Shown here one piece after another: positions 23,891 to 64,000 of a stretch of DNA of 64,000 bases. The DNA is from Marsupella aquatica (lineage: Eukaryota; Plantae; Marchantiophyta): assembly GCA_973895155.1 (NCBI GenBank), contig OZ316892.1:4610510-4674509 (forward strand). The letters are read 5' to 3'. The notes under the pieces were generated by a model. That model did no database searches, was not told the origin of the DNA, and saw nothing but the letters and a program-made list of their open reading frames with translations. Positions within the stretch are counted from its first letter, which is position 1; each line of letters starts with the position of its first letter. Made by a program: the position numbers and the translations under genes.

Positions 23891-24745
23891 GCGCTCAGTA
23901 AATCTATCCAGTTTCCTTCTCACACGCGACTGGTCGCGTCAACTGGTCCTAAAAGGAACCCTTCCTCCTCTAACAGAACCAGTCAATGAGAGAGCTACCT
24001 CAGACGCGACTGGTCGCGTCAACTGATCCTAAACAACTATATCCATTGAACCTTCTGTGGAGATTTGGATATGGTACGCGCTCAGTAAATCTATCCAGTT
24101 TCCTTCTCACACGTGACTGGTCGCGTCAACTGGTCCTAAAAGGAACCCTACCTCCTCTAACAGAACCAGTCAATGAGAGAGCTACTCAGACACGACTGGT
24201 TGCGTCAACTGAACCTAAACAACTATATCCATTGAACCTTCTGTGGAGATTTGGATATGGTACGCGCTTAGTAAATCTATCCAGTTTCCTTCTCACACGT
24301 GACTGGTCGCGTCAACTGGTCCTAAAAGGAACCCTACCTCCTCTAACAGAACCAGTCAATGAGAGAGCTACCTCAGACGCGACTGGTCGTGTCAACTGAA
24401 CCTAAACAACTATATCCACTGAACCTTCCTTGTGGAGATTTGGATATGGTACGCGCTCAGTAAATCTATCCAGTTTCCTTCTCACATGCGACTGGTCGCG
24501 TCAACTGGTCCTAAAAGGAACCTTACCTCCTCTAACAGAACCAGTCAATGAGAGAGCAACCTCAGACGGGACTGGTCGCGTCAACTGAACCTAAACAACT
24601 ATATCCACTGAACCTTCTGTGGAGATTTGGATATGGTACGCGCTCAGTAAATCTATCCAGTTTCCTTCTCACACGCGACTGGTCGCGTCAACTGGTCCTA
24701 AAAGGAACCTCACAGTATTTTCACGCGACTGGTCGCGTCAACAGT
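23891..24745. repeat. ~187-bp tandem repeat, about 4.5 copies, two ACGCGACTGGTCGCGT palindromes per unit
   Basis: gcgctcagtaaatctatcc recurs at 23891, 24078, 24264, 24453 and 24640. Confidence 0.95.
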
Positions 24746-27419: not shown

Positions 27420-28320
27420 CCATTTCTCAGATCTTCCTGATCTCAACTTGTTAGTAGGATGACCTGTTTTTTGGTTACACATGCAGTTCATCACGTGCAC
27501 AGTCGCGTGAACCAATTTATCTCGTGTCTTTTGATATTGTTTATTGTAGTCGACAGCCTAGCAAATTGGCCAGAAATCTATTTTAAAACCAACGTCTTCG
27601 TTTCATCACGCGCACGGTCGCATTAATGTTTTAGAGGTCAGCGAAAGTTCTGCACTCTTAGATGTAATCGCCCTTTATTTCAGAGATCTTCCTGATCTCA
27701 ACTTGTTAGTAGGATGACCTGTTTTTTGGTTACACATGTAGTTCGTCACGCGCACAATCGCGTGAACCAATTTATCTCGTGTCTTTTGATAATGTTTATT
27801 GTAGTCGAAAGCCTAGAGAATTGGCCAGAAATCTATTTTGAAACCGAGTTCTGATTCACGCGACCGGTCGCGTTAATGTTTTAGAGGTCAGCGAAAGCTC
27901 TGCACTCTTAGACGTAATCGCCCTTTATTTCTCAGATCTTTCTGATCTCAACTTGTTAGTAGGATGACCTGTTTTTTGGGTTACACATGTAGTTCGTCAC
28001 GCGCACAATCGCGTGAACCAATTTATCTTGATATTGTTTATTGTAGTCGACTACCTAGCGAATTGGCCAGAAATATATTTTAAAACCGAGGTCTTCGTTT
28101 CATCACGCGCCCGGTCGCGTTAATGTTTTAGAGGTCAGCGAAAGCTCTGCACTCTTAGATGTAATCGCCCTTTATTTCTCAGATCTGCCTGATCTCAACT
28201 TGTTAGTAGGATGACCTGTTTTTGGTTACACATGTAGTTCATCACGCGCACAGTCACGTGAACCAATTTATCTCAGGTCTTTTTGATATTGTTTATTGTA
28301 GTCGACAGCCTAGCGAATTG
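27420..28320. repeat. ~250-bp tandem repeat, about 3.5 copies, two palindrome variants per unit
   Basis: agatcttcctgatctcaacttgttagtaggatgacc recurs at ~27430, 27685, 27935 and 28180. Confidence 0.9.
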
Positions 28321-29995: not shown

Positions 29996-30369
29996 AGGGC
30001 AGTGCATTGACTACATTCTGCCTACTTATTGACGGTTGTGACAAGACAATGCAGTTCACGGATGTTTTACTGGCGCTTATTAGCACTACTGTCCTCAGTA
30101 GTTACTGACTGTCCACTCATTTGTTCTGAGTGGATGTGAAATGATTGATCGTAATCGATTGTGGTCATTCTCATTCATTTGACATGACTGACGGACCATG
30201 CATAGTCTGTTGCCGGTATGTGTGGTACCTCTAGGGTCACGCGACCAGTCGCGTGCAGCGCAGTGCATTGACTACATTCTGCTTATTGACCGACGTGACA
30301 GGACAGTGCAGTGAAATTGACGGACGTGACAGGACTATACGCTTACAGTGATATTCTCTGATGTGCAGG

Positions 30370-33300
30370 ATCATAATTAGTATGGTGACATCGACAGTCT
30401 GGATCAGGGAAGGCGGCCAAGTAATTATAGGCATACATGAGAAACAGGTTGGAAAAGGTCGCGTGATAAGTCTTGATCCTTCCAGGGTTTGTCACAATGT
30501 TCCTCTTGGGGCGGATAAAGTTCTTCTTCTATTGGAGGAAGTTTTTGACGAGACCATTCTATGCAAAGATGGCAAACTTTTGAAGGACATGATTGGGGGT
30601 TACCTTGTATGGGAAAGGAATCAGCTTTTTCGAGCTCCCATGGAATCGGAGGATGTGTTTGGCACTGTTGGTGATGATCAAGATCCAGTCAATCAAAATT
30701 CTGATGGGAACAACCATAATGAGAGTCGGTCTGGTGTGGAAGTAGTTTTACCAAAGGCCTTGTGGATGGGCATGCCTGTAAAGGTGGTGGATGAGAACAA
30801 GTTGATATTTGCAGTGGCAACTATACATGTTCTAGATCCTATAGTCAAGCTTGGGGATGTCACCCTTGGGAATACACATGTGGGAATTCTGATCAACGAT
30901 TTTGTCGAGGGAGCTACCATAGATCATCTGAAGCATAGAGATTGCTTAAAAGCTTGGTCGATGGACCAACTCATTGCCAAGGATGGCAACTTGTTGTCTT
31001 TCCACAACATCAGGCAAGCTGTGGGAGGGAACACATCTCCAACAAGTGGCAAGCGGTCCTACGTCCATAAAAGTAGGAAAAGAAAGAGTCCATCTTCCCA
31101 GACATCTAGAAGAGACACATCTTTGGCACGTCAAGATGTGTTGTTGATAAACACTAAGGACTGTTGTAGTGAACATTGTTGCCAATATTTGGACCACAAC
31201 TTGGCTATGGCAATTAGGCAAAAGTGGTGGTCAAAATCTTTTGCGGAGCGCAAGGAGGAGGAAATCAAGGCTATTAAAAATACAATACACTTGGGTACTG
31301 GAGAAAGGATTCTAGCAGTGGAGGGCAAAGTATTGTGCTTGGAGGCATGGAGAATCATTCATTCAAGAGGAAAGACTCAATTTTATGCCTTGAAGAAGAC
31401 TGTGATGGCTGGAATGAACATAGGTACCCATGGTAATGCTGGAAAAAGGCGTATGTCCGAGAAAGTATCTCAAGCATTCATGTCAATGAAAGAGATTATT
31501 GAGGAGGCAGCTGATCATCATCCAGCCAAGTTGAGAACCATGGCAGATAATACAAGGATGGTTTTGAGGGAATTGCCAACAAATCTTACTTGGGAGAATA
31601 TTAGAAACAGGGTTAATGTTGTCAACCAGGAGGCTGGTCTTCCTCCAATTTCCCAACCCACCTTGAGTCATCTACATCAGATGTATTTCAGGGAGTTCTC
31701 ACGTCACAAAAAGGGCAACAACTTTTCAAAGTGTACAACTTGTAGTGAGTTGCTTCAATGGAAAGCAAACCTTACAGGAGCTAAGGAAGAGTTAGAGGGC
31801 CTAAGGCGTGACGAGGAGGAACATCACCAAGACCACACACAACAAAGAATGTGCTATCATACCTGGAGATATGAGTCCATCCATCGTCCAAAGGAAGTGT
31901 TATGCCTTATTCATGATAAGATGGATCATTCAAAGACAGCTCTCCCAAGAATGCCATTCAATCCTAAGCATGTGGATGGTGCCCAAAAGTTCCCAATTAC
32001 TGTCACTGGTATCCTTACTCATGGTCATGGTCCCAAGGCCATAGCCCAATATCATGTTGGAGTGTCAATTGATTCAATACTAAGGATGTTGGAAAACCCA
32101 AATCCAATGATCAAATCACTTGTGGAGGGGCCAGACTCGACAAGTCTTTTTAAAGACCTCCTTTTTGGGAGAGCAGATATCTTGGAGGCAAGTGTCCTTA
32201 GAGCATTTGAGGATGACATTGCCTACATCTCAAGCCTAGGTACTTTACTCACAATCCTTCAATTTATTATTATTTAATAATATAAGCTCACACACACTGA
32301 CACTCTACTTTGTGTAGTTGTTGCTCCTCCTAGCCAAGGTTTCATTAATAGGGTTTAAACCCTAAACCCTAAATTGGGGTTTAGGGTCTGACTAGGGTTT
32401 TGTTTAAAAGCATTCTGAGATTGTTACATTGTGATGCAGCACCTGAGGCACCAAAGTTCAGGCCCCTTCCACGAGTATTGAAGCTACAACTGGATAATTG
32501 TGCCTCAGACAACAAGAACAGATATATGATGGCTTATTTGTCATTGTTGACGGCAAGGGAGGTGTTTGAAGAGGTTCATCTTGGTTTAATGGTGGTTGGG
32601 CATACTCATGAGGACGTTGACGGTATGTTTGGGCATTTTTCAGAGTCTATGATGCATAACCCCACATACTCATTGCCTGAGTTAATGTCCTTGTTCATGA
32701 GAGCAAGGACACCCAATGTAGTCCCACATTTTCTACAGGAGGTCCCAGATTTCAAAAACTACTTAGCTCCATTCATGTTGAAGGGCCTTGAGGCATTGGT
32801 GGGGCATTTAAAACCCAGGCTGTTTAGGTTCTATGTTCGTCATGATAGTATGCCATGCTTCCAATACAAAATGAAGTCAACTGATCAGGGATGGTTACCC
32901 AAGGAAGGTATTGAAATGTGGTCATGGAAAGATGACAAAAGTCCTCACATCCCAATTGGGGTGCCCAAACGGCTACCAATGATGGAGTTGAAAATGCTTC
33001 CTGAAGTGCTGACAGGGTTGAAGAAGCATGTGTCATTCTTTGAGTTTATTCTAAAGCAAACAAAAGAGGAAGAACCAAGCGACGTTGGACAACTCTCATC
33101 AATTATTGGAATGACATTGTAGATACTCTACAGGGTGAGCAGGTGCAATATGAACCTGAAGGTGCACACAACTTGGAATACGGGTTTTGGCCTTTATCAA
33201 TATGGAGAGAGCACGTTCCACCAGAATATCAAAATGTGGCATGTGAGTTGGAGGCAACAGTGGATTATGTGGGACCAGCAAAAGATAAACCTCCTGAGAG

Positions 33301-33727
33301 TTTTAACCCTAGGGTTGATGTTGTGAAGGGCTGTTATGTGTTGGTACGGGCGGATGACTCAGACCTGGATGTTTATCCCGTCCATATGGGGTTAGTTGTT
33401 ACAGATGTGGTAGAAGGACCAATGAATGAACAAAACCTTCTTACTCATGTATGTGGCGTTGAGTGGTTTAGACCATTTATGGCAAAGAAGCAACGTGGTC
33501 AATCAGACTGGCAGCCAAGAGAGCGGTGGGCAGATTCTTGGGATAAGAAATGGGAACGTGATCCATCTCCAATATACAAGGAAGCTGAGACAATAGATGT
33601 TTCCTCTGCCTTGTGGTGTTTCAAAGCACGCAAAGGACCAATGACAGGGCTGGTAGGAATTCCAAAGAATGTTGCTGTCAAGGCAAGAGACTATCTCTTG
33701 ACATGCATAGCAAGTGACAAATCCTAG
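30370..33727 (+). pseudogene. Sola1-like DDD transposase, spliced, with a frameshift near 33110-33140
   Basis: CC..HCC, LCLEAW, HGNAG, FSKCTTC, IHDKMDHSKTALP, LQLDNCASDNKN and LMVVGHTHEDVDGMFG give three catalytic-type Asp positions. An acceptor gtgcag lies at ~30369, with intron(s) at ~32240-32440. Confidence 0.8.
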
Positions 33728-37574: not shown

Positions 37575-40500
37575 TCATACCATTGTTTGAAGATATTGAT
37601 CCAATGCACGTCTATCTATTGGATTCAACACATAAATACGATCCATAACCCCTTCTTTCATGGTTAAGCTAACACTAGTAATGACCATTTCAATATCCAT
37701 CCATTTCAAATAAGTGGTATCATATCTGAATTCACTTTTGCTCTTACCAATAGGACTATACCAATTTAACAACAGTTCACAGATGCTACCTGATTGCCCT
37801 ATGAGTGGAGTTGGCCTATCCATCAAATCAATAGGTGAGCGACAATTACCCCACCTACTACCATACTGCTGTCTCATTTGGACAATACGACCCAACCAAA
37901 AATATTTCTTACCTGCTGAGATTGCCTCCACAATAGCCTTATTCTTTCCTTTCCCTCCCTTTCCTTTTCCAGATCTAGTACTTGGAGTAGGATTATCATC
38001 ACACTCAAATGCAATTGCACAACCAGTGCCAACATCAACAAACCATGAGTTAGGATTGGCTTCTTGCACTTTTCTCTTGCCAGTACTATAGTATAGCACT
38101 TGTTTCACCCTTGTCAGCCTATCTTTTGACAAATGAGGATTGCCTACCAGCTGGCTTACTAGAGTGGACTTGTAAATCACCTTGCCTTCATAAGTACAGT
38201 CGGCACTACCTTGGTACGATTCTGCACATTAGTTACAGCATGGACAACTGATCCGAACACATGCCAAACTTCGTGGCCTAATATCTCAAGCTCATCTGAG
38301 GGGTCTACATCAAACTATAAGTCATCTCTGTGTTCATCATCTGAATGCATCTCAAGAACAACAATGGGATCTGATTTTGTTAACCATGCATCTATTCTAT
38401 TCAGATCATCCTCAGGATCTTCCAATTCATGAAAGTCTCCAGTTGGGCGAGGACCTATGTCTGGTGGTTGGTGCTCTACTTGCTCCTCAGAATCATTGCA
38501 AACAACTGCTTCCTTCAAAACCACCTCTAGTGGCCATGTCTCACCTTCCACAACCCAAGGACATGTCCACCATCTCTTTCTAGCTGCTGGTAAGGAACTT
38601 TGTGGACACATGATCTGCAACTGATGCATAAAATCTTTAGCAGCAAAAAACCTCCGTTAAGGGCTGCAACCACTAATTCATTGGTTTCAATGCTCAAGAG
38701 AATAGTCAAGTAGATTTGGTGTTGGATCCCCTTCCCCTACAGGATGAATCTCCCCCCATACAATATCTTGCTTCTTATGTGAGCGACCTATCTTCAAGCC
38801 TTCTGGTCCATATTCCAGAGCAGCGAGCCGGTTCAATCCAACAGTACTATCCAACAAAGAGCCAAAATCATAATTTTTCTCATGGCCATTCATGCCTCCT
38901 ACCTTGCTGAAAAAAATCTCACAACAGTCCGAACCTAGCAAGTGGAAGGGAACACTTAGATGTGGGTCCAACTTATCTCGAAAGGCACAAATTAACAGCA
39001 CAATGAAATGACATGACATGTTAACATCATGAAAGGCCTGAATAGACATCATGTCTTTCTCAGTGTGTGCTGCAAAGTTCCCACCCACTGAATGGTCACC
39101 AAACCTCAACCACAATCTCCACAAACGTAGAAAGAATGAGACCTTGGATGCTAACACATTACGGGACCTCAAGTCATGAATTGGAGAAAAGAAAATGTCT
39201 AAGTAATCTGCACAGATCTCCAAGTACAACTGAGTTCCTAAACTTTGTTCATGTCGTACATCTCTCCTCTCATACAAATCTTTCAGACATTGCTGCACTC
39301 TTCTTGCTGCTATTCGTTGTGGACCTGCCCAATTCTGTCGGCCAGTCCTATTCACATCATCCCAAGCCATGCCATGTTCATGAATTGGATAATGATTGTA
39401 GACATTAACTACATAAGATAAAGATGCATGTTGATCTCCTAGCACCAGTAAAGAAGACACTCTGTCTAAGGGGTTTATCATCTTTTTGCCATTGTGAGGT
39501 TGGTCTTGGTCACCAAAGCCATACAAATCCCCATTTGGTAGAATTGAAACAGAGCATGCGGCCCACCCTTCCCACCCAACTCCATACCTTGGGTATGATC
39601 CATTATGCCCTCTGTAATCTTCCAGCATCAACTTTCAGCGACGTGCATCACCATCACTAGCATGTCCAAGCAAAGGGCCTACCATAGCTCTACAATATTC
39701 ATCCCAAAAAGCCTTTAACTGGACCCAATGCTCTCGTACCCAAGAAGCTGTGAACTTATTACAAGTTGGAAACTGTGCACACACAGCCAGTTTAGGTAAG
39801 GACTCATGCAGAGGATTCACAATCACAACTTGGGCATACATGCACTTGGGGCATTGTTCAAATGTACTTACAATTTTATCATGAATACCCCTCATCACCT
39901 TCACCAACAAGAATTTCCAAACCATAGGAGCATACATGCTGCTCTGAAGGTCCGCAAAAACCAATGAGAGTATCATACTTTGCCTCCCACCTGAGACACA
40001 GACATGCAATTTTTCAATATCACACCAATTCAAGCCAAGTGCTATTTTTAAAGTCACTAAAACAACAATTGGAGAAAATAATGTAGGGTTCCAATTACCT
40101 AGGGCGTTCCTTGATCCTTGTTTCATCCTCAGCAAAGATAACAGGCACATCCCCCTCAATGCCCAATGAGTGCTTTGCAGCAGACAAGACTCTAGCAATC
40201 TCCTTAAAGGTTTCCTAGTCCGTAACCCGGTTCGAAAAGGCGTGAGTTTTGCTCTATCACATTTTAGGGTCACAAGGCTAGGGGCTGTCAAGTTTCGTGG
40301 AAAACAATGAGCAACTTGATAGCCCCCAAATTGGAACATAGCCTGCTCTAGTCCTGTTACTGTAATGATTACCTTTTGGCTTCCTGCCTAAATTGCGAGC
40401 TACATCCTTCAAGAAATCCCACAAACCCTCCTTACCACCAAATGCACCATTCCTTTGTCCATTCAAAATACTCCTAAGAAACAATCTCAAATCCTTCCTG

Positions 40501-42185
40501 TCTGCTACAACTCCTAACAACTCCTCTAGTTTTCTTTTCCTGGTGCATGCTCAAGGCACATACTTTTTGAGCCTGCGAAGCTAACAACCAATGCTCTTTT
40601 CGTCGCACAGAGTTCAGCTTGTGCACTTGATCTCTTAACTCTGGGTTGGTCAAATAATCCAATCGTATACCACCAGCAGTGGTTTGGCTCCCTCTGTGGA
40701 CTATTGCTTCCGCTTCCCTGTGCACCCATCCGCGAAAATCATCTTCTAGTGTTATACAATCACATTCACTACAAGTTAGGTTTTCAAATCCTCCTCCATT
40801 CTGTGATAACCTGAAGCAACCCTTGTGTCTAAAATAGTCTGCTATACTCACAACACAGTCTCTACTTGGATGGAAAACATCCAAGCAACAACTTGGCTCA
40901 CAATGCCATGTAATACCCCCAGACTGATCATCCAAAATGCTGGAAATATCATAAGATATACCCTTCCATAACACTCGAGGCTCACCTCTCTCTACCCATA
41001 ATCCCCAGCAAAGCAAACTCAGACCAAGATCAACAGATTCACACACACCTGAACCTGAACTGCTGCCTGTTCGGGACCCATCATCTTTAAAGAACTTCAA
41101 AATCCCGCTTTGACCAGGATATAGGTCCCTAGAATCAGTCCTCTTTGGCCTGCCCCTCTTCCCAGACCTCAAGGCAAGCATTCTTGTGTCATGCCTAGTC
41201 TCCAATGCATCCAAGTGATCTCGACTCACTAAGTGTGTCCTCAAATTGGGCTCCAAGGTAAACTTCTTGGGGGACAAGTCAGTGTGAAGCATTCCACAGA
41301 CATTACAACAAACCTTAAACAGGAAAGACCTGTTTGCATACTCAGGAGTACTGGGATCAGGAACAATAGAGAATAGTTTGCCATCATCCCCAAGCTCCGC
41401 ATTCAATCGCTGAACTATCGAGTCAACACCTACTTTGATGGCATCTGCATGATCATATTCTGGCTTCTCAGAAATGTCTGCTGCCTGAACCAAAGTAGAA
41501 GGAATGCCCCTTCTTCGACAATAGTTATCCTTGTGCTTATTCCATGTGACCAAGTGTTTGGTCTTAAAATTACTAAAGCAATTGGAGATGGATTTAGGGT
41601 TCTGAGAGTTGTCTGCATTGCCATAAGTTTCCCTACATTCAAGACACTAGCTCCAGATGCCCTCGAACATCTGTCCCCTCATCCCAGGTACGAATTCTCC
41701 AATTGTGATCACTATAACCCTTCTTATGTACCCATTTCTCTAACCTCATCCACTCATCTTTCCATAGCTTTGATGGGACATCTCCCATCAATTGTGACTC
41801 AAAAGAAGCCTTTACAGGGGAGGGTGCTGGTGCTGTTGGCCCCAGTTGTGGTGTCCCAACGTTTGGACCCAATGATGCTGGAGTGCAAGGATGACAGGGC
41901 AGTGGTGGGATCCTCCCACCATCTCCCAAGTTCTTGTTGTATAACAATAACTCTTCCATCTAGCTCAGACAGATCAATTAATTTCTCATGTACAAGTTTC
42001 ACTCGACCAGGAAGTCTCTCATCCCAAAAATCAAAGTCAAAGTCTAGAGTAGAGCCAATACGAGCCCTAAAATCATGTAATGTGTGTTTTTCTTTGAAGG
42101 ACAAAACACAGAATGGTAAATCAGCCTTGTCATCCCCAAGTTTGCGTATTAATTTATCAGAGTTAGGTTTAGGGGCAGCTGCCAT
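37575..42185 (-). pseudogene. P-element-like transposase, multiply frameshifted
   Basis: GHASDGDARR, QDQPHNGKKMINPL (DxxH), RQNW, GTQLYL and LLGSDCCEIFFSKVGG follow the P/THAP9 core motif order. An N-terminal CNVCG...HLVSRDH zinc finger is present. Confidence 0.7.
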
Positions 42186-42685: not shown

Positions 42686-43411
42686 TCACTGGATCCATGA
42701 AATGTGGTATCTAATTGGAGTGTTGAGGTGTGGATCAATAGGATGACGGGGGCAGTAAAACATTTGTCGTTGTTGTCCATGTGCTTCATGGTCCCAGATC
42801 TCCCTATCATAAGCAAACCCTTTGCTTTTGATCATGGAGAGACAATCTGTATGCCAGGCTTTAGGACATCGTAGACATTGTACCATGTCTTGACCATCTC
42901 ACCCTCAAGACTCTAATAACACATGTGTCACACATGTGTGTAGTGGGCAGGACTTTGCATCAACTACCAAACACCGAAAGCAATAAAATCGAACACAAAA
43001 ATGATCAGGGCATTTCCACACAATTTCAGGTGATGGCCCCACAATCCCGCCCACAATGCGGCACCCATACCACATGGCTTGATCCTTGTTACAATTTGGG
43101 CAAAACCATGGCTTCCCTCCATGATGTACAGGAAGGACTACACAAGGGCAGGAATCGTCGGGGGCTTCATCGCCAAACACATAATGAAATTGCCTGTGAC
43201 ATGGTCCATCGCAGATTACCAGCTTCCCACCATGCTCACAAATTGCACAAACATGAGGTCTGGTTTGTAGAATCTCTTGCTCAGAGAATAACGGAATACG
43301 CAATACCTCTTCTGAAGAGGCTCCTCCATCCACGGACTGTGTTGCTTTCTTTATGTTTGAAGTCCTTGTCGGCATGGTTGTAATAACTGTACTGATCACA
43401 AAGCACATCAC
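42686..43411 (-). pseudogene. Tandem PHD-finger protein (EDM2/NSD-like), frameshifted near 42890-42910
   Basis: CAICEHGGKLVICDGPCHRQFH...WFCPNC...CPLHTC...QCLRCPKAWH...FYCPRH. Confidence 0.8.
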
Positions 43412-46900: not shown

Positions 46901-47209
46901 CCCCACCTGACTTGGTGAATCAGTGTACCATAACAAAGAAGTGGGGATTCCGGACATCTTAGGGAATTTGGTTGAAAATACCCATGCTTTCCCATACATA
47001 ACGAGGGATTTGATACTTCTAGCAGTTCGACATTTCCCTGGGGTAATTTGCCTATGTGTCCCACAGGCGTGACATTTGGGGCGTTTCCCATAATATACCC
47101 AACTACAGAAGGGTTTAGCGCCTCCGCATTTCCCCACATTTGCGTGTTTATTTGTATAAGCCGGAGGCAGTTGGCATAATCCAGGTCCTTGGATGGTTGC
47201 GCTCTCCGC

Positions 47210-48200
47210 AACATCCGTGTGCATATTACCCGCATACCGTGGGGTATCACTGGGGTATTTGGGATGTCAGCGTCCAATTGCCGCTCTCCAAGTGGCTTCG
47301 CTGAGGTGTGCAGGATGATAGTCATCTCCACCATCTAATTTTGCTGTGGTAAAGTGGGGATTCCGTGTGCATATTACCCGCATACCCGTGGGGTATCTCT
47401 GGGGTATTTGGGATGTCAGCGTCCAATTGCCACTCTCCAAGTGGCTTCGTTGAGGTGTGCAGGATGATATTCATCTCCACCATCCAATTTTGCTGTGGTA
47501 AAGTGGGGATTCCGTGTGCATATTACCCGCATACCGTGGGGTATCTCTGGGGTATTTGGGTTGTCAGCGTCCAATTGCCGCTCTCCAAGTGGCTTCGCTG
47601 GCAGCCCGGCCTGGAGGTGCGCAGGATGATATGCATCTCCACCATCCAATTTTGCTGTGGCTAAGTGGGGATTCCGTGTGCATATTACCCGCATACATTA
47701 GTGTATCTCTGGGGTATTTGGGTTGTCAGCGTCCAATGGCCGCTCTCCAGGTGGCCTCGCTGGCAGCCCTGGAGGTGTGCAGGATGATATGCATCTCCAC
47801 CATCCAAATTTCCTTTTGTAAAGTGGGGGTTCTGTGTGCACATTACCCGCATACCCTGGGGTATCGATGGGGTATTTGGTATGCCACTTCCAATTGCCAC
47901 TCTCCAGGTGGCTTCGCTAACAGCCCTGGAGGTTTGCAGGATGATATGCATCTTCACCGTCTAGATTTCCTATGTCGAAGCGGGGATTACTTGTGCATTT
48001 TACCTGCATACCGTGGGGTATTTGTAGGGTATTTTTGATTCCAGGCTTCTTGCTGCGTCAAATTGCATCCGCATCGTCAAATTCCAGGATAATGTGCATC
48101 CGCATCGTCCAAATTGCCTACGATGAAGTGGGGATTCACGATGTAACGCCTATGTATTGTGGGGTATTGGGGGATCCTCACGTATTACCAATGGGGTATT
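47210..48200. repeat. ~148-162 bp tandem repeat, about 6 copies, decaying rightwards
   Basis: gtgtgcatattacccgcataccgtggggtatc recurs at ~47217, 47365, 47514, 47676, 47833 and 47990. Confidence 0.9.
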
Positions 48201-51600: not shown

Positions 51601-52028
51601 GTAGAACCAATCATAGACGTCTCTCTCTCCGGCGCATCAGGAGTGCGGGTATTTTCAGCAGGCCTAATAGACTTGTGCTCTTCTTCACCAGAGCTCTCCT
51701 TTCAATTTGTATCACGTTCAGATAGTGTCTTCATTGGCGGCAACGGTGATGGCTGCAGCGGTGATGGCTGTAGTTGTGATGGTTGTGTGACTCCGGTATT
51801 GCTGCTCCCATTGCATTCATTCACCCATCTCCTCAACTTCTTCCTGTGCACCCATGTCTTCATCCCCACACTATCAAAGAAAAGTTGCCAATCATCCCCA
51901 TCCATACAGAAGAAGCTTTCCCCAGTAAAATCCAACTCCTCAATTTTGGAAGTGTACATTGTCGATTCTAAACATCGATCAATGTTTTCACACAATTCCT
52001 TACACGTAAGCCTGCTCCATTCATGCAT
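48633..52028 (-). pseudogene. Multi-exon gene with an N-terminal SAM-like domain and acidic low-complexity region, probably TE-associated
   Basis: WSRLTCKELC...YTSKIEELDFTGESFFCMDGDD...GMKTWVHRKKL fits the SAM pattern. Several GT-AG-bounded exon-like ORFs follow downstream. Confidence 0.45.
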
Positions 52029-55000
52029 TGCAACTCTGTTTCAATCAACATCGATCAAGTGTAGGAAACTCTGAAGATCGACTTCACTCCAGGCGTACGC
52101 GTAGCAGAAATAGTGAAATACAGAGGGGGACTTAAAACGAAAAGGGAGTATTACACCAAGCGCACTCACTGCCTCTCTCGTTCATCGTTCGTTTGAATCG
52201 CCCGCCCGCGTGTGTTGAAGGTAAAGGCTACGGGTTCATAGTCCGTTTGAATCGCCCGCCCGCGCGTGTTCGAGGTAAAGGCTGCAAGGCAAGTAGTGCA
52301 TGCGTTGCCCGCCTCAAAGCTGGTCCTCGTTAGTTTTGAACTGACCGCCCTGGTCCAAATTAATAATGTCACTCTTCAAAATGAGATATATCCGCAGTCC
52401 ATTGCGTCAACCGCATCGCTGATTTTGTTTCTATCCAGCCGATTTAGGCCGGGGATTTAGGAGTTGTGGTCATGATTATACAGCTGGGAAATTTTCCCTC
52501 ACTCTACTATTCTAGGCCTAACTCAAAAGTCCACGCAGTTTGGATTACTATGACAAGTTAGGACAAGATACAAACTATTCCCATGGAGACTAGCGCAGCC
52601 TGCGCTTCGGGAAAGTAAAGCCGCCAGCTGCGATGACCTTCTGATCAATCAGAAGCCTATGTGGCAAATACCCTACATAGGATACCAAGAAGATAAGGCT
52701 GGCCTCAGTTTCCCTCCAGTTTCAGAGGGATCATTTCCGTGGGAACGATTCCAAAGGTACTAAAGAGTGGAGGTCATTGACCGTAGCTCACACCTCCCAC
52801 TCTAAGTGTTCGATCCTCCTCTGTGCGAGCTCAGACAACTTCAGAATAAGTTTTACACGTTCGCGCCCGATAACATCATCCAAAACGTGGAAGTCCACAG
52901 GCCACCTGCGGATCTTCGTACTACATGGGAGAATTCTCTGTCAAATCCCATGCCACCTTGTGCGATATCCTGTAATGTGTTTTGGATTTGGTAGAAATTA
53001 TTGGCAGCACTCGGAGTCAATTCTTTTGATTGCAATAGTTTTTGCTTATGATTTTAGTTTGAAATGTGCTCGCAGGTCAAATACAGGGTTCTCGTATACT
53101 TCAAAGCGAAAGCAGATCTTACCTTACCCTTTACCACCCACTTCTTCCTTAGCCCGGGCTTACTAGTAAATATCCTACAATACCATTTACGCATCCTTGA
53201 AACTCGTCATCGATTTCACCGATCCCAAGGCTGGCCAGCCACCCCCTGTACACCGATCCTTAGAAACCAACTAAACCATATATCTTCTTCGTGTCCGGTG
53301 CGCTCTGATCGATGGAACAGGTATGAATCTGGATGTTCAATGATACAGACTCCGCGATCTATTTTCATGCAACATGCATCATTAATTATATATGGTATGT
53401 GGAATGTTTTGCAGGCTACGCAGGTCATATGAAACAGGTAGAGCATTAATATCAGAGGAAGTGAAGAATGAATGAACTCGGATATTTAGAACATACCACA
53501 CTTTTTGAGTCTTTGAGATTACAGTTGAAGCAATATACATCATGAGCGCCATGTTGACAAAGGTGTTGTGGCATCGTCCGAGGCCGATGCCTGTTTTGTG
53601 GCAACCGCCCGGGTTGCCTTGTCAGGTAACCGGGTTGCCAGTATGCTGTCCACCCCCCCTTGCCAACCGGTATGCAGTGGTAAGTTGTCGCAAAAGATAA
53701 TTTTATGACCTATTTTACGCATATGGAAGTTGTCGTCTATTTTTTCATGATTACTTACTTCTTCATTGAGTTGCAGGCGTTGCCCCGGCCTTCAAAGTGC
53801 GAACTCCATTATTCAATTACACATATTACCCATCAATTCTCCATAAATATAATGAACACCTACTGGAACAAGAACACATCTGCCATAAATGTATTGTTTG
53901 GGGTCACGTTGTTTTTACGGTTGTCTGTATGCTTGTGTTTTTTTTCCCTTCCTGGTCGTTGGGATCGATGGAGCCGCGGATCCGCCCAATGAGTTTCAGG
54001 TGTTTCTCTGTTTTTTTGGTCTGTTGATGTCCGGAGATTGGGGAGGGGCCCTTACCCAATTCTCCGTGAACTATGATGACCCACTACATGATGTCGCTGC
54101 GATCCGCAAAAGCGCTATAGTGGCTGAGTTCTACTTGCTGTCCTGTATCAGAGTTTGAAGTTGGAAGTTTTCCTTGAGAAATTGCGCACAAATTGCAAAA
54201 TGAAAAATTGCCGAGACCCATTCATCGATTAAACACTAGCCGACCCATTCATCGATTAAACACCAGCCGATTAACACCCAATTACTTTCTGGTACGTTTT
54301 AACAAACGCATCGTGGACATCACAACCTTCATTTAACAGATGCAGGTCCGAGCCCCCCTTTATTGCACATTGAAAATAAGTCGACCATTCACATACATAC
54401 ATTCTGGTCCCACTTGCCCCACAAACCAAGCATACACGTTATGCCATATCAAACCAAAATGGCAGGTCATTGCATGGCCTGTAGGAACCTTACAAACTAA
54501 AAGACTCCTGCCCAAAATGCCAAACCGTCGTACATTGTGCTTGCATCTGGTCACATCAGATATGAGTTGCATCCAAACTATCAAGCAGGTCCTGCAATCT
54601 ACATCTAACAGAACTAAGCTGCGACGCCATGGCCGGGTCTGAAGCATTAATAGATGATCTTGAAGATTCTGCTATATGCCTCCCTCGTGCAGTATGATAA
54701 CTTGAAGGTACACTGTCCGTCTTCAACTTCGTCTTCCGTGGAGTGACAGAAGTAGGCACCACAGAATGCAACTGGTATAGAAACTTCCGCGGAAAATCAA
54801 TTGGAGCATCAAAATTGACCACAAAAACCCTCATCGATGGGAAGGTCCTCGTTTCTCCAGCATTGCAGCAGCCAACGACATCTTTAAGTGTGGCCATGTC
54901 TCTGAAAAGAGCCGCCCAGCAGAAATCCAAACAATAGTGGCGAAGGGCAGGCACTCAGCCGGGCGCAAGCACTACTCAGGAAGGGACGAATACCGATCTG

Positions 55001-55881
55001 CAATGGTTGCGAATCAAATGACAAGCCGGACTGCAGAACACTCGACAAATTGTGCAGAGGGGTCACTAGATAAGTAAATTATCGTGGGGCGCAAAGTGAA
55101 TGCAAGTAGAGGATCCAGAAGGGAGACCCGGAGTTTAGGGCCAAGTTTTGGGAGACGTTGATTTTACGGGGACGTTGACTCTACGGAAGCGGAGCTTTGG
55201 GAGACGTTCATTTTAGAGAGACGCGGAGTTTTTCTCTTGGGAGACATGCGGACACTTTGTGTACTTGGGCACATTTTAATGGAGTAAATATGCGGCAAAA
55301 TAAATCAAATAAAAAAAGACTTTGTCTCCTTCCGGTCTAAATTTCTCACCCTTCCCCTAACATAAATCTGAGTTTTCATTTTCTGAAGGCATTGGCTGAA
55401 CTTGTGGGAGCTTTCCTTACATACATTGAATCTTATAGAGGTTGCTATATGGCTGAACTTGTGATGAGGGGCCTAAAACAGGGCCCATATATAATAATGT
55501 CTACAATACTTTGTCAGTGCCATGTGCCACATGTTTCAAATGTTGGATCTAGGCCCTTATATTGCCAGTTATATGGACCATTGGCACACTTTATGTCACA
55601 TCATGATGACTTACAAGGGGAGAGTTTTTAACACATTTTCCTGCTTTTAAGGTGAAGTTATAAGGGTTTTTGAAGAGGAGGGACACAAAAGCATTGGGTG
55701 AGGCAGGGGTCATTTTGCTTTTTAAAACTCTATTTTGTTTTCTTTAGGGGGGGGGGGTCATCACGCACTTAGTATATATTATTACATAAATATGAGAAAC
55801 ATAAAAATAAGATTGGAAATGATTATCATTTCCTTGCCAAGTCCTGTGAAATGCGACCAAACATACAGCTAGGCAGGCGTA

Positions 55882-56155
55882 TTAATTAATTTAAGGATGA
55901 AACATGGAGGTAGCTCAGGGTGGGTGGGGGTGGGGGTCACTTCCACCCATTAAATGTTCACATCATGTGCAAATGATCGAAGTAAGGGGCCTTTTATGCA
56001 TTACCCTAACCCTAAACCGTAAGACTTGCGCACGTACATATATGCATGCATGCATATGTGGAAGGTTAATTAATTTAAGGATGAAGTATGGAGGTAGCTC
56101 AGGGTGGGTGGGGGTGCGGGTCACTTCCACAAATTAAATGTTCACATCATGTGCA
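55882..56155. repeat. Direct duplication of ~90 bp, 184 bp apart
   Basis: ttaattaatttaaggatgaa...ggaggtagctcagggtgggtgggg...gttcacatcatgtgca occurs twice. Confidence 0.85.
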
Positions 56156-58532
56156 CCAAAGTATGGGGCGTTTCAGTCATTATTAATTTGTAAGGAAGTG
56201 CTTAGAAGTAGGGATGAAGTAAGGGGGTAACAATTCAAAAAGTCCCACTTTTCATCACACAATTCATTGGTTGCCACATGTCAATAAATGATTGGTGGGT
56301 TTTGTGACCTTCCTATTCCTTTTTGAGAGAGTGATTAAATCAAACATGCATGTTCGCAGATGCATGTATAACAAGTTCCGTGATCCTAAGGTGAACTTGG
56401 GAGGTAGCTAGGTAGGTACCAATTGTCTCAGTCCCTTAACAATAGAACTTATAAAGCGCCAACTACAAGGTAGATCATGTGGATGAGAAAACTCATGACC
56501 AGTATGTCAAATAATAAGCATGTATGCCATTTGTCATGATTTATAGGTACTATCCTCTATTCATGTTTGTGCAAAGAACAGGTAATGAAGGCTAGCTAGT
56601 ATGATATGTCAATGGAAGGGTAATTTAAGGATTAATAATCCGTAATCTAAGGATTTTGAAGGTTGACCATCATTAACAAGTGTGACACTATATAAGAAGT
56701 GATCGAGAGTAAATACATGCCATTCTATATTCAAGTAAGTTAGATTACTTTTGGTGACAAGCAGATAGACTCTGAATTGATGTGTGTAACTTAACATTTT
56801 ACAAATGAAGCTCAATTACATTTCAAACTTTATTAAAGTTTGACGAATTGAAAAGCGGATTATGTACGTATTTATAAAATCAAAATCAAAGTAGAATCCC
56901 TCGGCCCTCCCTCTTTTGCTACATTAAGTGAACCCCCCTGAGAACAAACCCCCCCCCCCCCATGTATATCGTTTGATGCATTAAAAATGCCTTGTTATGC
57001 ATGTAAAAACATTACTTATCCTATCACATTAGATCCTTTTGTAAATTAGTACTAGAAAATTATTGTTCTTCCTGTGTTAATTTGTCTAAAACTCTGGTAG
57101 CTTATAGACTTCATGAAGGTAAACAAACTAGTACTAAAATGAATTAACAAAGGGAATATTAGGCTACACTATATCCCTAGAGGAATATTCCATAGTCTAC
57201 ATTACTTATTTAAACTTCAATATATTGCGCCATTACTCTATCTTCATTTAAGAAGCTAGGGGGTATCAACCAATGACCTATTTTCAAATGGTACATTGGG
57301 GGTCCTTAACCCCAAAACAAATTGACATGAGCACGTAAGATTGAGGCAGCAGGGTATTTCAGGGTCACACAATAATTAGTATGTGTGACACTAATCTTGT
57401 GACATTTGAGATGGCTGATGTCGTGGCCAGCCCCTATAACCAGCTGGTATGCATTTGGTGAACTGGAATGCCATTAAAAAGCTTGGATGACAATTCTATT
57501 TACATAGACCATATTGTAAGAAAGGATGGGTCGGATACAAAATAAATAAAGACCTAGACAGGGCCCAACAACAATTTCAATGTCCCAACAATAATAAAAA
57601 ACATGCACTTTGAACCAAAAATGTCAATAAACTCCCGGAGTAAGCTGCCCAAGAAAGAAAACCATACACATGAACTTCAAATTTGAATAGCATAAGCATG
57701 AATTCAACATGGTGAGTGACTGCCTTAGAGGGATTAGAGGCAGTGGCCCCGGGCTTGCAGGGTCAACGATAAGGTTTCCCACCTACTGTAGCACATTCGC
57801 TCACATGCAACAAGGACGTTTGAATGCTTTCCCGGAGTCATGAATGCCGTGGGCCCCACCTAATTATGCACAGTATTCAACATAATAATGAACTTCTCCA
57901 ATCATCCTTCCGACAATCCCACCGCGCACATCCACCTCCTGAGGAATTCTGAATCAACTTCGTTGCAATATTTTGTACACAGGAACGGCAGTGTGCACCA
58001 TGACGCCAGAACCGAAGGAACGATGCACCTGTCAGTACAAATGTTCGCGCTTACGGGATGGGTATGATTTTGTGAGCCCAAGGAATCGAAGACGACATGC
58101 AAACTATGACAAGACAGGCAGGGTCATTCCTGCAAAGTTTTTAGTGGACCGTGGGCATCTGGATGGCCATGGCCTATCGCATCAAGACGGTCATTCTGCC
58201 AACTTCTTAGGTAACAAGAAGCCTTAAAGGATGGGTCTAAGGCCTTAATTCCTTTTTCCAAAAAATTATGATTTGTAGAAATGTAGTCCTAAAACAGGCA
58301 ATAAAAGAAGCATATTTTTTTGACATTCACCCTTTGCATTTTAAACTAGAGTTTGCACCAATATTTGAGACAAAACATATTCAAAACCTGATTTTCATAA
58401 AATTGACCTCTCAAAACAAGTATAAATATCATAGTCTAGGCTCAAAGGCCATTGACATCTCAAAACTTGCAAGTAAAGTCTAGTTCTTTGTAGTTAAAAC
58501 AACCCTAAAAAGTCTTACAAAAATATCCTCAT

Positions 58533-59670
58533 CTAAGCATCTCTTGTTTCCTCAACACTTCCAACAACTCCTGAAGAGTCAAGTCCAATGATTTCCTCCT
58601 CTCCAACTCCTATCTCTAGTATTGGTAGAATGGTCTCTTGAACATCAACATCTGAATCCACCATGCCCTTGCCATCATCTTCCTCAATATTGTCCACCAG
58701 GTTTAGAATTCTCCCTTTCAAGACATTGCTCTGGCGCTCATCAATCTCTACAGCAACGCAATGTCTTCCTTGTGCCAAAGAGGAAGCAAATCCTGTGCCT
58801 GACCCTGAACAAATATCTAGCACCCAGTCTCCAACCTGGCTAAAATGAGTAACTTCCCAATCCAATAACATTCTTGGCTTTTGGTAGAAGTTCACCATCT
58901 TATTGTCCCCATTATGTTTCAACTTATTGGTCACAGCTGGACACACAACCACATTATTTCGAGACTCATTAGTCTCAAAATTGAAATGCTCCAAAGATCG
59001 TTTCCCATCCTGACTGTGAAAGCCAATGGTAAAACACTCCAAATTGCTGTTAAGCCTTGCACCTCCTGCATTCTTAACATTGTCTTTCACCCTGCAAAAT
59101 CCAAAACTTGCATTAAGGATTTGTTTAAAAATCCAACATCATGAAATCATGAACACCAAAAAAACTTATTCATCTTTTAAAAATTTTCTTACCAAATACA
59201 ATTCTGGAAACCGCCATTACACTCAGCTTTCAAGATAGTCTTGACAGCATCATACTGGTCAATACTATGATGAATGATAACTCGCCAAAGATTTGCCTTG
59301 GTGACAACCTTGAAACACTGAACCATCTTGGTAACCTCTTCCACACCCCATCCAACATTGTCTTCGTGAAGACAAGCAGTCATTCCAAACCCATATGGAA
59401 TATCTGCCAAAGCCAATGTGTAAGCTCGTGATGGGACTACCTCATGCAATTTCTGAGCATCGTGTGTGAAGATATCATAGTACACATCCCCAAACTGTGG
59501 ATGCTAAAAAGCATTAGGGTGGAGTTCACTTCCCTGGATCTCTCTGCAAGATGTCTTCATTGCCCACCAGTTCTGTGCTTGTGCAATATGCGCATTGAAC
59601 TTATCTGGGAAGGACTTCAACTCTTTGCCTTCTTCACTCTCTCCCTTCTTTTTCCGGGAGCTGCTATCTT
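58533..59670 (-). CDS. Beta-class N4-cytosine/N6-adenine DNA methyltransferase domain (two exons, one in-frame TAG at 59504-59506)
   Basis: LALADIPYG (motif IV), NCIW|VKDN...RLNSNLE, YQKPRMLL (motif X) and GDWVLDICSGSGTG...GRHCVAVEID (motif I/II). The intron tg|gtaaga...ttgcag|g at ~59094-59194 keeps the frame. Confidence 0.9.
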
Positions 59671-59741
59671 TCTGAAAAAAACATTTTCCGGGATGAGATT
59701 CCTACATACTTAAGAATAAATTTTGTAAAACAAATGCATAA

Positions 59742-61591
59742 TCAATCTCTGTCAAATAAACTTACCCAAGTCTGGAAGATAGGAACAAAATTCTTCAACA
59801 CATTATCAGTGCAGTGTTCTGGGTACTTGGTTTTGCAATTCTTCCAACTCTCTTCGTGAAGACAAGTAAGAAATGCTTTTTGCACTTGCATTTGGAATTT
59901 GTGCCGTTGAAATTCCTGTCCCATCTCTTGAAGAGATAGTTCCTTTGCCAAAACCCTTTGTAGCAGTGGACAGATCATGTCTGGATCTTTCAATGCCTGC
60001 ATGTGTCTCCACTCAGTCAACTTCATATCCTCACATAGCATTCTAGCATCTCCAGACTTGGACATCTTTTTCTTGGTCTTATCTCCTTTCTGTCCTTTTA
60101 TTTCACAATTCTCCCATCTATCAAAGATCTGTCGTATGAAAGACCAAACAATATCCTTTCGAAATGCCAACTGAAATAAATTATCATTGGCATTCAGAAC
60201 CTCAGAATCTTTACGTACACCCCAGTCCTTCAGATTGATTTCAGTGGCACACTCCTTCTTGAAATCAACATTTGATGATGATCCATTCTCTACAAATCGC
60301 ATGTGAATGTAATTCACTCTTTGGATGGTGCTCATCTGTTGACGAAATTCAGAGTCTATATTATGACTCCAAGCTAAGTTCCTTGCTTCCTGGATAGACA
60401 AGCCTGCAAAGATCCAAGACTGCACTCTCCTGTATGACTTGTTGTTGGGAAATTGTAATGCCAGGTCTGCCTTTGCACAAGCAGAATGATTTCCCCCAAT
60501 CACGTAATAGTGGTAATCATTCTTTTTTGAGAAATCAAAATCACCCCGAGTTGGGCACTCCTTGGGATCAACCAAGAGAACAAAAGGTGCTGCCAATGGA
60601 CTAGCTCCAGTTGCTTTCATCCTTGTGGTCAACTGTGTAAGAAAGTAAGGCTGGATATGCCTTACTTGGTACACTGGCAACTCCAAAGATTTCTCCCGGA
60701 CCGGTGGGTGAAGTTGTCCAATGTCAATTGTGATTGTCTCCTCTTGAACTCCACACCTCATCAAAATCCCTTCCTGGTAGACCACCCTAGCATCCATTGA
60801 CATAGATTGAGCCTTCTGCTCCAAATGAGTGGGGACTTTTTCCAACGTCTGCTTCTTGGATTTTGGTGAACTTGGTCCTGCACCTTGAGAACCCTCTGGT
60901 CCACGTTTCTTTGATGAAGTCCGAGTACCAACAGTGCCCTGTGCTGATCCTCCCGTCACGATTGTCCCCTCTTGCGATCTTGCAATCTGTGAACCACCAC
61001 CAGATATTGGAGATGTAACAACCATCTTTCTCGCCGGAACAGAACTCGGACGAGATCCAGAAGGAGCAAAAGAAGGACCAGACTTTGGTGGACGGGCATT
61101 GGCACTCTTCTCTGCTGCTTTTCGAAGAATCTCCCGAGACTTTCGAATTGCACTCTCTAATGTGCTGGCATGATGGTCAAACACATAACCAGCAATGAGC
61201 TGTGCAATATCATTGTAGCTTTCTTCTGCCGATAGATTCTTCACCTTCTCAATAATCATCTCAATATCATCAGCCAAGTAACAATGTGCAGCTCTTCCAG
61301 AAAATCTCTCAACGTCAACTGCAATCAGCGTAGACGTCTCCTTTGTTGTGATAAGCATATTGAGTACATCGCCTCCTCGTCGAAAGACATCAATCCGGCC
61401 ATAATTCACCCAACCAAGACCTCCAGAAGGCAAGGTCTCGTAGATGCACAACATCAAAAAAGGCTTCTTCCATGATTCTGTACCCAATGATATGGTCCAA
61501 GAAGAGTTTCCGAAATCTGTCAAAGGATGCTCAACAAAAATCGCGTCTAACACCTTCTCCTGTGATTTTGGTTCAACCATTTTGACTTCCT
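59742..61591 (-). CDS. ParB/Srx-like domain exon, spliced to the methyltransferase exons
   Basis: YQVRHIQ...PFVLLVDP...YYVIGGNHSACAK...IFAGLSIQEARNLAWSHN...MSTIQR. The donor tgg|gtaagt at ~59766 joins ttttcag|aaa at ~59671 in phase 0. Confidence 0.75.
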
Positions 61592-61999
61592 GAACTCAAG
61601 TCCAACATGATTGCAAAGTTAGTTGTGTTTCATTTTCAAGTTTAGTTGTCGAATTCAGGTTCATGATTTTATGAAGCAAGGTTCTTACCTTGACAGTGGA
61701 GTCAAAAGTTGAATTTGCAACACCCAAGCCTAGACGGCAATTCTCGCTCAGAACTGTGTCATTGGTATTTTTCTCCCGTATTTTGTCTTAATTAGCTTCT
61801 CCGCCACCTCCCTGGCCGATGCCCGAGCTGATCGATCCCTCCCAACTTAATGTCGTTCGTTCCTCTCTTGGTCCCGGCCCCAAAGGCCTCCCGATCATCT
61901 TTCCCCTTTAATTCTCATTTCTATTAAGTCCCCGTTCGGACTTAACTCTGTGCGCCTCCCGATTCGGACCTCTTCTTCCATCGAGGATGCTTGCTCCTC

Positions 62000-62360
62000 C
62001 CCCGACCTTCGACTACTGCTCCCCCCTGGCCCTTCGACACTTTCTCCTCCCCCAGCCTTCCACTATTTCTCCATCTCCCCCGGCCCACTATTTCTCTCCC
62101 CCAGCCTTCGACTATGTCTCTCCCCCAACCTTCGATAGTTGCTTCTCCCCGGGCCCTTCGACAATTTCTCCCCCCCGGCCTTCGACAATTTTCCGTCCCT
62201 CCCCTGGCCTTCGATGATTTCTCCTCCCTCTCTTGGCCTTTGTTGATTTCTCCTCCCTCCCCCGGCCTTTGACAATTTCACCTCCTTCCCCCGGCCTTCA
62301 ACAATTTTTGCTCCCTCCCCTGGCCTTCGCCAATTGCTTCCCCCCAGGCCGTTGACAATC
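62000..62360. repeat. Degenerate ~30-bp C-rich tandem repeat
   Basis: ccccggccttcgacaatttctcc variants, about 11 copies. Confidence 0.8.
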
Positions 62361-63492
62361 CCTCCCCAAAATTAATTGCCTGCTGCGCTCTTAACACTCT
62401 CCCGGGCGCAAACTCGCGAGCCAATTTTTGATCTTGCTGCCAAACTCCTAACCAAATTTCTTCCTCTGCCTTTCACGATTGATACTCCCTTCCACAAATT
62501 GATCTGCGCCTCAACAGTCAGGCTCTTCCATTCCACTCCGAGCTTCCATTCCATTGCGAGATTAGATAGTTGCACCAGATGTTGGTCTGCCCCCGATTCA
62601 GTGTGAAAATTTAGGGATTCAAACCAAGACTCAATTCAACTCCTGTTCAGACCACACCAATCACTAGGGGAAGAGCTTTCCACAGCACCAAGCCTCAGCC
62701 CACCATAGCTCTTTGCCGTGCCTCCTTTCCCTTCGCACTTTGCAGATGCACGCCCAGACTCCAAGCAGCTGACAGTCCAATTTTTCTGAAACTTAGCAAT
62801 TTCCAATTTTTGGGTTCATGAATTCATGAACCTTTCGCCACCTCCACTTCGGGAATTCCTGAAGGTGGGAACCCTTCATGAATTCATGAATGGGAATCAA
62901 GTATCATTTTGAAAGAATCTAGATAAAAGTCAAAATTTGTACCCAAAATAACCAATACAATGGGGAAAAGAAATACAAGTAAAAACCAAGAAAAGGCCTA
63001 AAATAGGGGTCATCTAAGACATTTTTGGTTCCAATTGAATAGTCTGCAAAAACTGGAAAGAAAACATGAAGTAAATTTGACCAATCCATTACTGATACAC
63101 TATCTTAAGATTTTGGCACCAAAACATATGCTTTAAGTAAAAATAATAATTTTGACACCTTTGCTCACAAAATTTCAGGAGAAGACTTCAGGAATGAATA
63201 ACGCAAGTCTCCAAGAACTCTAATGAGTATTAGAAACCTGAAAACATAAGTAAACCTGTGAGATTTGGAGAAATAATAAACTACTTTCTCATGAAAGATT
63301 TCTTTCCTTGTCACTAATTCCTAATGAATGGCGTGGCACATTTCTTAATTTTTTTGCTAATTAATTTTTTGAGTTCTTTCCAAAACCTATAAAAGGGGCT
63401 TCTTATTCATGACTCTATCTCATTTCAATTTTTCAGTTTGAGTCAATTTGGTATTTTGGGTGTTCCCTTGTGATTTTGGTTCAATTTTTGAA

Positions 63493-64000
63493 ATGGCAGC
63501 CTGTTATGAGTCGGACGATTATTCGGATGGTATTTCGGATGATGTTTCCTTCCCGGATTGTCCTTGTACTGTTACTTCCCCAGATGCCCCTAGCAAAACC
63601 ACTATTTTGGAGATGCCTCCCCCAACTCCAATGAGTAAGTTGAAAGTCAAGGCTCTTAGTGTACCAAATAGTAAGCAAAAATTATTTGGTCCTAGTGTGA
63701 GTGAGCACTCTGAGTCTTCGGACTCATCTGAGAGTACAAGTCCCCCTGGCCGTCAAGTATTATCAAATCCTTCTCAAACTCGAGGTAAATTTGGTGTGCG
63801 TCCTGTTGGCCCTCAACATAGTGGAGAGCTGAAAAAAAGGACTCATGAATTCATGAAGGCCAGATCTGGAGATGTGCCAAAAAGGCCCAGTCAAAGCCCA
63901 AAAGTGGATTTTTGTGCACTGCGGGAAAGTCGTGGTGTGCAACATGCACCAATGAAAGAGAGTGAGTATTCTCGTCCTACATCTTTCAGATTTCAAGAAG
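63493..64000 (+). CDS. ORF running off the window edge, divergent from the ParB-MTase gene
   Basis: ATG at 63493 (MAACYESDDYSDGISDD...) is open for 169 codons to 64000. It is S/P-rich with no domain visible yet. Confidence 0.5.
   Translation, partial: MAACYESDDYSDGISDDVSFPDCPCTVTSPDAPSKTTILEMPPPTPMSKLKVKALSVPNSKQKLFGPSVSEHSESSDSSESTSPPGRQVLSNPSQTRGKFGVRPVGPQHSGELKKRTHEFMKARSGDVPKRPSQSPKVDFCALRESRGVQHAPMKESEYSRPTSFRFQE

Follow-up and report, generated by a model that had tools for sequence, protein, structure and literature searches.

The window examined here is a stretch of 64,000 nucleotides from the liverwort Marsupella aquatica (GenBank assembly GCA_973895155.1, contig OZ316892.1, positions 4,610,510 to 4,674,509 of the forward strand), and coordinates are counted from its first letter. 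Two elements lie in it. The second of these, at the right-hand end, carries a gene for a predicted fusion of a ParB-like domain and a DNA methylase (ParB-methylase), a divergent gene on the opposite strand and a set of short palindromes in and between the two. The ParB-methylase gene extends on the minus strand from a probable start at 61580 to 58533. GT-AG introns are predicted at 59092-59192 and 61590-61688; the latter ends a few bases 5' of the probable start codon and is hence likely to be a 5' intron.

Two perfect copies of the 16-bp palindrome TTCATGAATTCATGAA are situated between the divergent genes, and imperfect copies occur in both introns and in the divergent reading frame (Table 1). 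The first-pass annotation of this DNA had listed the two perfect copies with the 20-bp palindrome around one of them, two intronic copies matching at 14 of 16 positions and a 14-bp core. We recovered every one of these where it had been placed; the intronic copies both fall within the predicted GT-AG introns, and the 14-bp core proved to be part of a copy with a single mismatch. A decayed site midway between the perfect copies had been missed. At up to three mismatches, TTCATGAATTCATGAA was matched nine times against 0.95 expected, a number reached in none of 100 shuffles. The conserved unit is not the full 16-mer, but TCATG-N4-CATGA, which has the structure of a tandem pair of 8-bp palindromes. 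Exact copies of this unit number four in the whole 64 kb (0.20 expected), all within 59139-63856 and with AATT, AAAT or ATTT at the centre, and the remaining 59 kb of the window contains none.

Table 1. Positions of the features discussed in the text (second element first)
Feature	Position	Strand	Remarks
Main exon, ParB-methylase gene	59766-61580	-	N-terminal beta-rich domain, disordered linker, ParB-fold domain and helical region resembling a helix-turn-helix, as predicted
ParB motif	60483-60497	-	GGNHS
Candidate recognition helix	60159-60209	-	
Exon with methylase motif IV	59193-59671	-	DIPY at 59393-59404; one premature TAG at 59504-59506
Last exon, with methylase motif I	58533-59091	-	DICSGSG at 58797-58817; Pfam N6_N4_Mtase
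Promoter site 1	62815-62830		Exact TTCATGAATTCATGAA, perfect palindrome; within 20-bp palindrome 62813-62832
Middle promoter site	62848-62863		Decayed, 3 mismatches
Promoter site 2	62875-62890		Exact TTCATGAATTCATGAA, perfect palindrome
Site in last intron	59138-59153		2 mismatches to TTCATGAATTCATGAA
Site in predicted 5' intron	61660-61675		2 mismatches to TTCATGAATTCATGAA, one of them in a half-site
Site in divergent reading frame	63842-63857		1 mismatch; 14-bp core 63843-63856; read as H-E-F-M
Tandem array	61991-62359		24-29-bp units, upstream of ParB-methylase gene
Divergent gene, start	63493-64000	+	Cut by window end; probably N-terminus of a DUF7869-type transposase
First element	6381-34288		About 28 kb, complete; terminal inverted repeats starting AACCCC; CCTT on both flanks
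ParB-like gene of first element	16554-19232		GGQHT; in-frame TGA 17037-17039; degenerate methylase-like tail (FDPSS, YFGEGT)
DUF7869 transposase of first element	30361-33727		E 1.7e-36

A scan of metagenomes returned 124 candidate stretches, two of which were confirmed as homologous loci (L001 and L002); their proteins are 70% and 66% identical, respectively, to that of the window gene. No further locus was confirmed among eight viral candidates or among 21 from prokaryote genomes. At up to one mismatch, the motif occurs six times in L001 (0.36 expected; centres ATAT or ATTT) and three times in L002 (0.17 expected), and in a blind count of gapped palindromes forms of TCATG-N4-CATGA rank first in the window element and in both relatives. 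The first-pass annotation had named a frequency typical of AT-rich DNA, or the lack of such palindromes in other members, as grounds for doubt; the motif stands far above expectation in all three loci and is present in both of the homologous loci obtained. All three loci carry it in the same, orthologous last intron, and the best local match between the intergenic DNA of the window and of L001 is the motif itself. The sites persist in matching places within otherwise diverged introns and intergenic DNA.

The central four bases behave differently from the half-sites. All three L002 sites, which are spread over 2.9 kb, have a CTAG centre that is seen neither in the window nor in L001. Since L001 and L002 are sisters in our tree (support 90/95), the centre would have switched a single time, on the branch to L002, and jointly at sites far apart. 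The candidate recognition helix takes the forms DSEVLNANDN, DSEVLNAHDN and DTDVLNANDN among the three loci, being near-constant where the half-sites are constant and different in distant clades. A single spacer switch, on a tree of three loci, is suggestive but falls short of co-evolution.

Other short sequences recur around the sites. The 16-bp word GGTTGTGTGTATACAC is found in identical form 5' of the gene in L001 (1540-1555) and L002 (385-400) and was not seen in the comparison of the window's intergenic DNA. Single TCATGA half-sites bunch just 5' of the divergent gene start (63289 and 63407 in the window; 775, 878 and 898 in L001). The unit of the 24-29-bp tandem array matches the GAAGGCCGGGGGAGG flank of the L002 palindromes (L002 316-375), and may be an amplified, decayed unit of site plus flank. 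Viral contigs with the paired motif (37 loci) were also considered as relatives and rejected, no protein related to these being encoded in any of them. Five of the 37 supplied 22 frames, which belong to ordinary phage or mobile-element families or have no match, and we therefore regard these loci as unrelated look-alikes. Among such phage contigs, repeated TCATG-N4-CATGA was seen in L004, L020 and L031 (one 48-kb viral contig), L016, L022, L027 and L035, and one unrelated phage contig has GCTCATGAGCTCATGAGC at many places between structural genes.

To gauge constraint on the sites, we compared sister copies of the promoter region in runs X2-X4; run X5 scarcely covered this stretch. The 17 variant rows fall at 15 positions, all outside both perfect sites, and the nearest are the first base after each site (62831 and 62891). 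Thus none of the 32 motif bases is variable, compared with 15 of 84 flanking bases (Fisher p 0.005, ranging from 0.0009 to 0.039 depending on the bounds chosen). In most of the depth of X3 and X4, substitutions at 62851, 62852 and 62859 would restore the middle site to a perfect palindrome, the third in the promoter, their phase being taken from equal depths in separate rows. The divergent reading frame points in the same direction. Where the window protein has H-E-F-M, H-D-I-M occurs twice in L001 and in each of three longer homologues, and there are no such words in 75,159 other residues; apart from them the N-terminus of the divergent protein is poorly conserved. The repeated H-D-I-M looks like the trace expected of an embedded DNA motif, the three longer homologues being known as proteins alone. 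In sum, the palindromes are real, enriched, confined to the element, kept in position in relatives and less variable than their flanks, and the sites are probably functional.

We modelled the main exon with AlphaFold from a 14-sequence alignment (A1; mean pLDDT, the predicted local distance difference test, 73.8). In Foldseek searches the model matched Noc best (E 4e-5), with ParB (1.5e-4) and KorB also at the top, and the ParB domain aligned with PadC over 96 residues (Z 9.1, root-mean-square deviation (rmsd) 2.8). The model thus gives solid grounds for a ParB N-terminal (ParB/Srx) fold, after which a helix-turn-helix is probable, on a weak assignment. GGNHS is present in all 14 rows of A1 and is the commonest form among the relatives fetched. 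The N-terminal domain gave only weak PH-like or RFTS-like matches, and the A1 profile retrieved no informative solved sequence. In a language-model search the ParB region came out close to clusters of fungal DUF3723 proteins (0.95), which we take as a lead only. The viral matches include many ParB-like proteins of phages.

The last exon matches the Pfam family N6_N4_Mtase (PF01555; E 1e-7, 32.6 bits against a cutoff of 26.7). Motif IV (DIPY) precedes motif I (DICSGSG), the order of a beta-class amino-methyltransferase. Among solved sequences, the adenine methylase CcrM is the closest (E 0.0064). The methylase half of a relative matched 574 phage records, and an adenine-specific annotation is frequent among the best of these. 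D-x-P-(Y/H/C) was found in 30 of the 34 relatives listed, many of these rows being near-duplicates, and S or N in first position in none. We infer that the methylase would target adenine, giving N6-methyladenine (6mA), and not N4-methylcytosine (4mC). The premature TAG breaks the reading frame of this copy; sister copies show differences at 59506, and in both L001 and L002 the frame stays open across this position. Because of the stop, the window copy would depend on intact copies in trans.

At 50% identity the family falls into 473 clusters. Its named members come from Calypogeia, Riccia, Adiantum, Ginkgo, Chara, hemichordates and a sea anemone. In a tree of 30 of the 64 core rows, hand-picked to drop near-duplicates, the nearest named relative is that of Calypogeia fissa, with modest support (85/87), a placement that points to a bryophyte as the likely source. 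Methylase motifs IV and I are retained in the liverwort, fern, Ginkgo and Chara relatives. The hemichordate and sea-anemone members are P0122, P0145, P0107 and P0144, and in P0122 the methylase motif is altered.

The divergent gene probably encodes a transposase, by a weak link. Its frame is conserved in L001 and in two longer proteins, and the cysteine-rich half of the longer homologues is weakly similar to the DUF7869 transposase of the first element (BLASTP E 8e-4; hhalign probability 3.3; Atlas lead 0.81); its homologues have no match in Pfam. DUF7869, which we presume to be linked to the Sola superfamily, was not found in the literature searched. Diverged contigs matching 52000-64000, a region that also contains other repeats, numbered 812, 1883, 211 and 266 in the four runs, in all identity bands, and their occurrence in hundreds marks this as repeated DNA. 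The second element, present in many copies, is probably a cut-and-paste transposon. Its left end was not located in the window and its right end lies beyond it; an AACCCC at 57308 was rejected as the left end, since it is crossed by a high-depth contig.

The first element has a palindrome of its own. ACGCG-N6-CGCGT occurs there in 24 copies at up to one mismatch (0.16 expected), all 24 within the element's ends, and no exact TCATG-N4-CATGA is present in that element. The first-pass annotation had described the layout of the second element as mirroring the first with unrelated sequence, which agrees with these counts. It had further supposed that each subfamily pairs a cognate protein with its own palindrome, in what would be a self-recognition code. 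For deep splits this holds, in that the palindromes of the two window elements are mutually exclusive. It fails for close relatives: since loci with 66-70% protein identity keep the half-sites and differ in the central 4 bp, the claim to an own palindrome applies only at depth, where the pattern of a code appears to be present, if coarsely drawn. The pairing with a cognate protein fares similarly. The second element's protein has the predicted fold of parS-binding ParB proteins, but the first element could not be confirmed as encoding a ParB-methylase. Its ParB-like exon reached E 0.008 against the ParB core profile and gave a 16-column match at most in profile comparison, the family methylase profile did not match the element, and a single-sequence model of the C-terminal part was unusable (pLDDT 33).

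The first element also contains tandem arrays of its palindrome (23891-24742 and 27409-28283) and further cargo, with frames for NIF-like phosphatases (three, 7071-9066), for a Ulp1 protease (9234-9728) and for a long, repetitive coiled coil (14268-15950). Nested in it, at about 20650-23890, is the remnant of a long terminal repeat (LTR) retrotransposon with reverse transcriptase, RNase H and integrase and with 160-bp direct repeats at 20871-21030 and 23731-23890. Beyond the first element lie further large decayed minus-strand frames without Pfam matches (37578-41959) and a PHD finger frame (42908-43411), possibly parts of another transposon, and a tandem repeat of six 148-162-bp copies (47155-48137).

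We propose that the palindromes are bound by the element's own ParB-methylase, which would methylate adenines in the element as a self-mark; taken as a whole, we regard this account as evenly poised between right and wrong. A dimer of the protein would read the two TCATG half-sites through its helix-turn-helix, as ParB and Noc do with theirs, which are palindromes of 16 bp. From the sites in promoter, introns and transposase frame the protein would be loaded along the element, with 6mA being written nearby by the methylase. The element would probably gain by staying expressed, or by being told apart from host DNA, in the way that VANC serves VANDAL elements. Binding of the sites by this protein seems likely to us; active methylation, given binding, would also be probable, by a slightly smaller measure; and an anti-silencing outcome is the least certain step.

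Several observations count against this proposal. The alignment with KorB covers 191 of 201 residues but has an rmsd of 13.8, and isolated DNA-binding domains reach Z values of only 3.9-4.9. The clamp proteins ParB, Noc and KorB bind CTP through an arginine-rich motif, GxRR, and as GGNHS lacks these arginines, clamp sliding may not apply. Since the first element has many sites yet no detectable family methylase, the sites may serve some purpose other than methylation. A shift control that preserves the clustering of variants equalled the observed constraint in 6 of 116 shifts (about 0.05), and the assignment of contigs by similarity is biased towards conserved motifs, so that the evidence for constraint is moderate. 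Lastly, the DNA of homologous loci is limited to L001 and L002. A broader version of the proposal, in which land-plant transposons have rebuilt a bacterial, partition-style ParB/parS pair for self-recognition, is in our view possible but doubtful. In it, the ParB-methylase of each lineage would load at its own palindromes, spread over the element and write 6mA, and the recognition helix would co-evolve with both half-sites and spacer, giving an orthogonal address code common to algal and animal elements.

Other readers of the sites have to be considered. The ParB protein might bind the sites yet methylate nothing, and might instead autoregulate the divergent promoter or serve as a scaffold by which the element is compacted for transposition. 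The 24 sites of the first element, whose degenerate methylase-like tail goes undetected by the family profile, would fit such a role, as would the operator-like cluster of three sites between the divergent genes and the presence of the repressor KorB among the top fold matches; however, the retention of motifs IV and I from liverworts to fern, Ginkgo and Chara suggests a working enzyme, and we consider this alternative unlikely. It is also conceivable that the transposase, or its cysteine-rich N-terminal half, binds the sites in the manner of the subterminal motifs of Spm/CACTA elements, the ParB-methylase being a passenger. Every element examined has a divergent transposase-like gene, and sequence-specific activation by transposases is reported in the abstract of a 2026 preprint (10.64898/2026.08.24.746577). 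The sites, though, are internal, lying in introns, promoter, coding frame and arrays and outside the terminal repeats of the first element. Perfect palindromes, moreover, generally suit a two-fold symmetric reader such as ParB, and a transposase reader strikes us as decidedly unlikely.

Recruitment of a host transcription factor, for example a bZIP protein reading TGA-NN-TCA and driving expression of the element, would suit the promoter and intron positions, which are those of enhancers, and the core, which resembles a CRE-like palindrome. We nevertheless think it improbable: the centres of a relative's sites have all changed jointly, the CTAG of L002 abolishes TGA-NN-TCA, the neighbouring element's palindrome is unrelated, and the other 59 kb are devoid of exact copies. 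A reading of the sites as heat-shock elements was discarded, there being no canonical three-unit heat-shock element in 58001-64000. That the copies are functionless products of local duplication or gene conversion is very improbable, for although the motif consists of two tandem 8-bp palindromes in a region with other tandem repeats, the sites are kept in diverged introns, intergenic DNA and a coding frame and vary less than their flanks, which largely contradicts neutrality.

The architecture and the idea of self-binding are already published for brown and red algae. In the Ectocarpus transposon Sola1-1_Ec32, an accessory gene opposite the transposase of a large DNA transposon encodes a ParB-like domain and an N4C/N6A methyltransferase, and its product was proposed to bind and modify its own element (PMC12477816). 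The window element has a predicted fusion of this kind opposite a probable transposase gene, a likeness drawn from the published description and between a brown alga and a land plant; the passages of that paper give no binding motif, and the string 'palindrom' does not occur in its main text, whereas the window element has a defined palindrome. Red-algal Plavaka elements (PAG2/PAG3) carry the ParB-like PAG3 beside tandem inverted repeats, for which self-binding was likewise proposed (Bostrychia preprint, bioRxiv 10.1101/2025.02.11.637652). As excerpted, that cassette also carries an N6-adenine methylase, but its ParB is fused to a 2-oxoglutarate (2OG) oxygenase and its methylase to SET, and the elements are of the EnSpm type and have tandem arrays; in the window element, a single protein combines ParB and methylase, and most sites stand singly and are dispersed.

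Beyond the algae, VANC21 and VANC6 of VANDAL elements recognize family-specific short motifs in introns and upstream regions, with which they co-evolve (PMC5735166). Passages of the same paper show a comparable combination of an element-encoded protein with family-specific non-coding motifs; the VANC motifs, however, are non-palindromic 8-9-mers, binding and hypomethylation were demonstrated experimentally, and no ParB or methylase domain is given there. Bacterial ParB/parS, Noc/NBS and KorB resemble the window protein in having a ParB-N fold followed by a helical region, and dispersed 16-bp palindromes. They differ from it in that the window protein has GGNHS, a fused methylase and introns, with no ParA among the 35 window frames scanned. 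Fusions of ParB and helix-turn-helix to a methylase of a different group are described, in the portion seen, from chlorophytes and chytrids (PMC4738411). The Marchantia 4mC enzymes, set beside the window methylase by their partial description, are beta-class too and act genome-wide in sperm.

Our literature searches, which lay outside figures, supplements and most subscription papers, found no description of such elements in land plants. New here are the land-plant members, a defined and dispersed site with evidence of constraint, the spacer switch and, within a single window, a pair of elements whose motifs exclude each other. According to passages of the Plavaka study, transposon accessory proteins that bind and modify their own element have been demonstrated for VANDAL/VANC alone (bioRxiv 10.1101/2025.02.11.637652), and those of the ParB type have so far been hypotheses without a tested site. 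The Marsupella locus offers a candidate site under apparent selection, a natural spacer variant and, from the same genome, another element whose site is unrelated. With a defined site and relatives in liverworts, a fern, Ginkgo, Chara and marine animals, the hypothesis is directly testable. If true, such elements would be a source of local 6mA in plant genomes and would provide compact, orthogonal pairs of site and writer.

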